Part shown: in pieces, positions 31,777 to 32,608 of the stretch
Layout of the letters: the number at the start of each line of letters is the position of its first letter
How positions within the stretch are numbered: the stretch's first letter is position 1
Origin: Eledone cirrhosa
Taxonomy: Eukaryota
Length of the DNA: 64,000 bases
Assembly (NCBI GenBank): GCA_964016885.1
Contig: OZ024748.1
Coordinates: 53,630,001 to 53,694,000, forward strand
Direction of reading: 5' to 3'
The notes under the pieces: generated by a model
Told to the model about the DNA's origin: nothing
Database searches by the model: none
What the model saw: only the letters and a program-made list of their open reading frames with translations
Program-made: the position numbers and the translations under genes

Positions 31777-31810
31777 CATCGTTGCTCATTTGTTCAACAC
31801 TGACAAAGGA

Positions 31811-31853
31811 ACGCTGTACTAGTTTCAAGCTTATTAGCTATCGTCAGCAATGT
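31811..31853 (-). ncRNA. Minimal type I hammerhead ribozyme
   Basis: Minus strand acattg-CTGACGA-tagct-aata-agctt-GAAA-ctag-TA-cagcgt; palindromic ACTAGT stem III, GUA cleavage triplet. Confidence 0.8.
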
Positions 31854-32178
31854 ATACCTTCCTACCAGATGATTGAACGTCTGAAAGTATATACTTTCCT
31901 TATGCATATTAACGGCTGAGCAGCCTAATTTGCATATCGAGTGAGTTAATCGGCCGGGGTACCGAAAACGATAAACGGAAAAAATGAAACGAAATTTCAT
32001 TTCTCACTCTTAGTACGGCAGTTACTTAAATATAAGTATGTTTACGTACATACATATATGTATACAGACGTATCCCAGCCGATTAACTCACTCAATATGC
32101 AAATTAGGCTGCTCAGCCGTTAATATGCATAAGGAAAGTATATACTTTCAGATGTTCAATCATCTGGCAGGAAGGTAT

Positions 32179-32221
32179 ACGTTGCTGATGATAACTAATA
32201 AGCTTGAAACTAGTACAGCGT
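32179..32221 (+). ncRNA. Minimal type I hammerhead ribozyme
   Basis: acgttg-CTGATGA-taact-aata-agctt-GAAA-ctag-TA-cagcgt; 6-bp stem I. Confidence 0.8.
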
Positions 32222-32608
32222 TCCTTTGTCAGTGTTGAACAAATGAGCAACGATGGTTGCTAGACACTGTACAGCTTAATTCGGGATGTTTGTTTACAAA
32301 CACACTGAGCATTATAATAAATGTTCAGTGAATCCATACGTACATATATATATATGTGCATGTATGTATATTATATATACATACTATTGTACGTCTGTAT
32401 ACACATATGTATGTACGTATACATACTTATATTTAAGTAACAGCCGTACTAAGAGTGGGAAATGAAATTTTGTTTCATTTTTTCCGTTTATATATATATA
32501 TATATATATATATATATATATATATATATATTTATATATATATATATATATATATATATATATATATATATATATATATATATATATATATATTTATATA
32601 TATATTTT

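Follow-up and report, generated by a model that had tools for sequence, protein, structure and literature searches.

The window, the whole stretch of 64,000 nucleotides from Eledone cirrhosa analysed here, contains an inverted hammerhead-bearing repeat between a decayed LINE fragment and a (TA)n microsatellite. The initial annotation had described two interleaved pairs of inverted repeats followed by (TA)n, and both pairs are present in that arrangement; the order that it read on the minus strand of the inverted part (B, linker, A) was likewise found, with a linker of 15 nt. Unit positions are numbered from window position 32075 (unit position 1), so that the predicted ribozyme cut follows unit position 141. 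The locus comprises:

30821-31776, plus strand: flank outside the element, a decayed piece of a LINE (RVT_1, E 8e-08) that breaks off at 31776
31777-32072, minus strand: inverted arm, unit positions ~316-431 (B' and linker) running into 1-181 (A')
31777-31962 and 32070-32255: long arm pair A'/A, 186 nt, 96% complementary
31971-32072 and 32390-32491: second arm pair B'/B, 102 nt, 95% complementary
31811-31853, minus strand: inverted-arm hammerhead, type I (CUGACGA 31847-31841; GAAACUAGUA 31826-31817)
31956-31970, minus strand: linker, 15 nt, from the distal 3' end of the family to the start of the next unit
32070-32072, no strand: inversion point, a 3-nt overlap (GTA) common to both arms
32070-32491, plus strand: sense arm, the last few linker nucleotides and unit positions 1-418 (A, C, B)
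32179-32221, plus strand: sense hammerhead, type I (stem I 32179-32184 / 32216-32221; CUGAUGA 32185-32191; GAAACUAGUA 32206-32215)
32421-32430, plus strand: E1 (ACATACTTAT, unit ~358), the more proximal of the two 3' end motifs, lying inside the window copy
32431-32491, plus strand: tail from E1 to E2, ~60 nt, ending at E2 (CCGTTTAT, unit 418)
32489-32605, no strand: (TA)n microsatellite, as is usual on the 3' side of family copies

The sense arm is just under one unit long, crosses the hammerhead cut site and ends at E2, running into (TA)n. The outer end of the inverted arm (unit 181) corresponds to neither of the two 3' ends of the family and abuts the LINE fragment with an overlap of at most 1 nt. 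The window copy therefore has unlike flanks, (TA)n being missing on the left side. The ~0.6 kb that follows the LINE fragment in related copies is missing from the window; the fragment has lost its 3' end and, relative to those copies, carries an internal deletion of ~225 nt. The two arms agree at 20/20 subtype-diagnostic positions. CpG decay accounts for most of the remaining differences between them; one difference, a G to A change in stem II, also occurs in 6 of 171 other copies. Since the locus has one hammerhead per strand, no monomer can be released from it, and its read-through RNA would form a long hairpin.

Across the same (TA)n lies a second, unrelated hammerhead-linked mini-element (32611-32772). 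Its head-to-head hairpin (32611-32696) is extended by ~75 nt on a single arm, the same one-sided-tail architecture, and there are 363 first-look candidates. Longer copies (L212, L217) show a CUGAUGA...GAAA-CAG-UUC core that has been cut away in the window copy. Elsewhere in the window, a weak Rfam tRNA match (52028-52085, 31.2 bits) is possibly the head of a tRNA-derived SINE, and two very regular minisatellites occupy 15260-15905 (48 bp x 13.4, 94%) and 37670-38781 (84 bp x 13.3, 98%).

In the hammerhead motif that both arms carry, stem I has 6 bp and is followed by CUGAYGA; helix II has 4 bp set on a U.U pair, and helix III is the palindromic ACUAGU. The predicted cut of the sense arm lies after 32215. 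The annotated "clean minimal hammerhead" in A stands as regards the motif, present in both arms, and its palindromic helix III, but neither copy is clean: stem II of the sense copy contains an A-C mismatch, and the inverted copy, with stem II intact, has one in stem I. By inspection, the units of tandem arrays elsewhere in the genome have no stem mismatch, unlike both window hammerheads, and the strict pattern is found in 41 of ~50, 13 of 28 and 5 of 5 units of three arrays. Rfam returns a weak match to Hammerhead_HH9 (18.5 bits, E 0.14), below the gathering score of 52 bits, which no hammerhead reaches in the whole window; matches to miRNA families were dismissed as AT-hairpin noise. Helix III comprises one A-U pair and the palindromic CUAG and can be extended to 6 bp between two copies, while an internal loop in stem I and the loop on helix II offer possible sites of tertiary contact. 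The minimal hammerheads of Penelope-like elements (PLEs) are described as lacking helix III and tertiary contacts (PMC6155905), and retrozyme hammerheads with a palindromic-tetraloop helix III as cutting poorly as monomers and well as dimers (PMC7229834). Given the palindromic ACUAGU helix III of this family, efficient cutting by its hammerhead is predicted for the tandem dimer only.

The repeat is not confined to the window. In the 3.0 Gb genome, a 36-mer across the B-linker-A sequence has 610 exact matches and the hammerhead core pattern 9,486; reversed or control patterns have 0 in both cases, so neither motif is due to chance. The sense arm as query gave 3,649 first-look candidates, of which the 40 scored were 94-97% identical. 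Direct tandem arrays, sought as the initial annotation had proposed, exist with ~50, 28 and 5 units and a period of ~430 bp (mostly 425-439 in these three), and the long arrays show a higher-order periodicity typical of unequal exchange. The unit has a GC content of 34% and occurs in subtypes of 431 and 423 nt, with a further relative at 85%. A younger subfamily of ~475 nt (511 in one array), with 818 candidates, is 99% alike among its best 40 matches; it is found at L173 (G000:C2:176980698-176984963) and L139:6979-8001, and its internal (TA)n varies in length between units. A long variant array (G000:C3:12272007-12291733) has a spacing of ~470-600 bp and a helix II that starts with G instead of A.

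No stop-free frame longer than 69 codons was found on either strand of the multimer, and no terminal direct repeats beyond the tandem units at the family loci examined. The proposal of a tandem, non-coding, retrozyme-like hammerhead unit of ~430 nt is thus borne out: its junction recurs, arrays exist and long frames are absent. Nor do the copies examined extend 5' of A into a shared coding flank, the arrangement named as speaking against it. TSDs are a separate matter, as the flanks are mostly (AT)n, which would mask duplications; apart from these, the unit shows the features of non-LTR retrozymes that can be judged from sequence, and on that basis it is a non-LTR retrozyme family. Searches of mostly open-access literature on retrozymes, hammerheads and Penelope in octopus and cephalopods listed no description of this family, which supplementary species lists may nevertheless include.

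The predicted fold of the circularised monomer is far more stable than that of 60 shuffled sequences (z -7.7 to -10.7), and still so when the AT-rich block is left out (z -3.8 to -5.0). Seven predicted pairs change on both sides between subfamilies, a number reached in 10 of 500 shuffles; the comparison covers nine related sequences from about four subfamilies, from which the structure itself was predicted. Two of these pairs belong to hammerhead stem I and its extension, one of them flipped from U-G to G-U in stem I. Two more are in a helix that connects the stretch directly behind E1 with the region following the ribozyme, and another is in a helix across the B-A junction. A comparison of substitution rates in the core and the rest (0.9% vs 1.8%) was discarded because 60 of the loci had been chosen by their intact core.

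Insertion ends were analysed at these 60 loci, the clusters that come first among the leading 100 core matches listed for contig C1. The sample is unbiased for likeness to the window, and every locus in it has an intact hammerhead core. Outer 3' ends are concentrated at two sites ~60 nt apart (75 of 88): 34 fall at E1 (~358, ...ACATACTTAT), 41 at E2 (418, ...CCGTTTAT) and 13 elsewhere. The sequence (AT)3 follows 27/34 E1 ends, 37/41 E2 ends and 4/13 other ends (64/75 for the canonical ends together), against a background of 346 in 4,320 windows (8%). E1 and E2 share a terminal TTAT that would be capable of annealing to (AT)n, and both are kept in the younger ~475-nt subfamily. The 5' ends, in contrast to these fixed 3' ends, are scattered. 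None of 106 5' ends, a set that includes some segments split at internal (TA)n expansions, falls within 5 nt of the ribozyme cut; 2.7 would be expected if they were uniform, so there is no pile-up and the deficit is not significant. Ribozyme cutting does not define the insertion ends.

Head-to-head inversions occur at 29 of the 60 loci. A further 30 were scored as single-orientation, at least four of which carry short inverted arms missed by the cut-off, and the sole locus of opposite orientation is probably an artefact of the self-complementary AT block. The point of inversion differs from locus to locus. The outer ends of the 29 inversions are E1 with E2 in 19, E2 with E2 in two and E1 with E1 in none, eight having a non-canonical end; among the 21 whose outer ends are both canonical, E1 is thus paired with E2 in 19 (p 1.1e-4, compared with 0.5). 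When 79 further loci were tested for the motifs, 14 showed both ends, each time E1 with E2; the remaining 65 failed to match both motifs. Over the two sets, 33 of 35 intact inversions have one end of each kind. Simple twin priming of the L1 type was set aside as their origin because both outer ends are defined 3' ends.

These counts place the window locus. Its inversion is a routine PLE-type insertion form with nothing specific to this locus. By the pairing of E1 with E2 in the family, its left arm probably once reached E1; a later deletion would have removed ~175 nt along with the (TA)n on that side and the 3' end of the LINE. The head-to-tail B-A junction emphasised in the initial annotation does recur in tandems, but it is not a ligation joint, only the sequence that lies behind E2: in a monomer released by two ribozyme cuts (each after unit 141) it would be interior. 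It has the appearance of a junction because position 418 (E2) is one of the two fixed 3' ends. The window locus is an unremarkable, partly deleted and otherwise ordinary copy of a large family.

PLEs, the candidate source of enzymes, are abundant in the genome (150 GIY-YIG matches scored of 10,595 candidates). Their coding frames combine RVT_1 with a C-terminal GIY-YIG domain preceded by a CX2-5CxxC motif, which has been assigned to Neptune and Nematis (PMC8557442). In one PLE family (L126, L130, L131, L137, L142, L143) the hammerhead is built alike (U.U, palindromic AGUACU), two ends lie ~45 nt apart and the flanks are AT-rich microsatellite or (TA)n; L143 is an inverted PLE copy with one end of each kind. 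In blastn of the unit against the PLE ends of 50 GIY-YIG loci, no homology was found, only nearby retrozyme copies and chance words. Mobilisation in trans is accordingly inferred, since the PLEs match in their ends and in a look-alike hammerhead and not in sequence. A pattern with the same helix III and another helix II had 326 matches, mostly variants of the retrozyme family, and no coding neighbour was found beside five odd ones. Another PLE family (L080, L106, L143) has its own 3' hammerhead (CUGAAGA, longer helix II). Long open PLE frames at L127:- (938 codons), L128:+ (844) and L129:+ (1,096) are candidate active partners.

The locus very probably represents one decayed insertion from a family present in many copies, whose ~430-nt unit is non-coding, carries a type I hammerhead motif and was likely copied from multimeric RNA by the reverse transcriptase (RT) and GIY-YIG nuclease of a PLE acting in trans. 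Every insertion feature of the family is a PLE feature, and the copies might therefore be 5'-truncated ends (pseudo-LTRs) of an autonomous coding PLE rather than an independent non-coding element. PLE coding pieces do lie within 2 kb of 8 of 150 retrozyme loci, and homology of retrozymes to pLTRs has been reported in Xenopus (bioRxiv 10.64898/2026.07.22.740005). Such an origin is nonetheless improbable here. Behind the tail comes the next unit or (AT)n, and no ORF, in nearly all of the 100 listed rows as judged by eye; an autonomous PLE ORF (RT and GIY-YIG) is absent from the unit, and the 30 single-orientation loci share no coding 5' flank, although three pairs of their flanks share sequence, one of them through a missed inverted arm. 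Pure arrays of up to 50 units, the lack of homology to PLE ends at the 50 loci above and the arrangement at L080 (G000:C1:36272459-36276492), the locus inspected among those eight, point the same way: the PLE upstream there ends in its own, different hammerhead end, and the retrozyme sits in its (TA)n flank. Still less credible is a satellite or a foldback/MITE-like DNA element, propagated by recombination at the DNA level and bearing an incidental hammerhead-like motif. The higher-order periodicity of long arrays, the folding of the locus as one long hairpin and the sub-threshold Rfam score would fit it, but the polar structure (fixed 3' and scattered 5' ends), the inversion points particular to each locus, the orientation bias of 29 to 1 and the compensatory changes, the stem I flip among them, would not.

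A closer question is which RNA served as template. At 47 of the 60 loci an arm is longer than one unit and hence passes through the cut site, as do both arms of the window copy; a cut linear monomer was therefore not the template. At 20 non-CpG subtype-diagnostic positions, where an 8-nt indel counts as several, opposite arms differ by 11%, tandem neighbours by 9% and separate loci by 45%, and both arms therefore usually come from one kind of template. With the same family and the same PLE partner, the main template could have been a ribozyme-released, ligated 430-nt circle copied by rolling reverse transcription, as in the published retrozyme model. Read-through of the cut site, the strong fold of the circularised monomer and the circles demonstrated for coral, mussel and axolotl retrozymes (PMC7229834) agree with this. 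So do near-identical neighbouring units at L003, L043, L054 and part of L056, which fit a circle or a homogeneous array alike. Yet an uncleaved multimer accounts for read-through equally well, the hammerhead type of the family is reported to be weak as a monomer (PMC7229834), and uncleaved RNA is described as the PLE substrate (PMC11167929). Adjacent units of different subtype at L023, L058, L059, L079 and L094, which differ at 6-16 of 18-20 diagnostic sites, and the alternation of two unit types at L005 could not come from one monomer circle; they imply a multimeric template or later exchange. We consider a circle rather unlikely as the main template, and the mixed neighbours argue for mixed multimers as at least some of the templates.

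Under the favoured reading, PLE copying of multimeric RNA, tandem arrays would be transcribed into multimers whose structured E1-E2 region is bound by a PLE protein. The protein would nick (TA)n on both strands. Synthesis of cDNA would begin at E2 on one of the target ends and at E1 on its counterpart, and microhomology would then join the resulting pair of 5'-truncated cDNAs head to head. The hammerhead could free 430-nt monomers or circles from arrays without setting the insertion ends. It is possible, if somewhat short of probable, that all the cis information needed for Penelope-type insertion resides in the protein-free 430-nt RNA, one PLE complex priming both ends of one and the same (TA)n break and using for this two structure-defined sites (E1, E2) on the same multimer. 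For PLEs, initiation is reported to proceed in the absence of homology to the cut DNA (PMC11167929), whereas the TTAT of E1 and E2 would be able to anneal to it.

The family resembles the metazoan non-LTR retrozymes of mussel (~350-390 bp) and axolotl in its tandem non-coding units measuring a few hundred base pairs, one type I hammerhead per unit, GC content below 50%, thousands of copies, multimers from dimers to ~50-mers and self-paired predicted fold (PMC7229834). The palindromic tetraloop of helix III recalls axolotl HHR_Amex1, and the U.U at the base of helix II HHR_Amex2 (PMC7229834). Expression, cleavage and circles, features of those elements, are putative in the present family, and its units (423-475 nt, 511 in one array) lie at or above the described range of 150-450 bp (PMC7229834). 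Two fixed 3' ends, (TA)n targeting and head-to-head inversions are not described for retrozymes in the results and discussion of that paper. They have counterparts among insertions of EN+ PLEs, which share 5' truncation, partial tandems, a 5'-truncated copy in inverted orientation, a tail confined to one end, a pair of neighbouring RT start sites, microsatellite or AT-rich targets and a hammerhead in the repeat (PMC8557442, PMC3846280, PMC11167929). Unlike EN+ PLEs, the present unit has no ORF, the whole element is the repeat and no homology to the PLEs of the genome was found; the tail of ~60 nt also exceeds the 30-40 bp described for PLEs. Closest in kind are the pLTR-related retrozymes of Xenopus (bioRxiv 10.64898/2026.07.22.740005) and non-autonomous Chlamys such as MRC1 (PMC8557442), likewise non-coding, multicopy head-to-tail insertions for which PLE enzymes are proposed. 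Those are tied to an autonomous partner by sequence similarity, the present family by insertion footprints only.

Mobilisation of animal retrozymes by PLEs was earlier proposed from co-occurrence, shared hammerheads and pLTR homology. Counted insertion footprints add evidence of another sort: 3' ends fixed at two sites, targets of (TA)n, and inversions that combine one E1 with one E2 end. Insertion ends that ignore the ribozyme cut, together with templates some of which appear to be mixed multimers, bear on the circle-template model. A ~60-nt region and candidate PLE proteins are now named for direct test. If paired priming from E1 and E2 is true, it would account for the presence of a tail at just one end, long without explanation, and the unit would offer a minimal cassette with which PLE retrotransposition and the mobilisation of retrozymes could be reconstituted in vitro.
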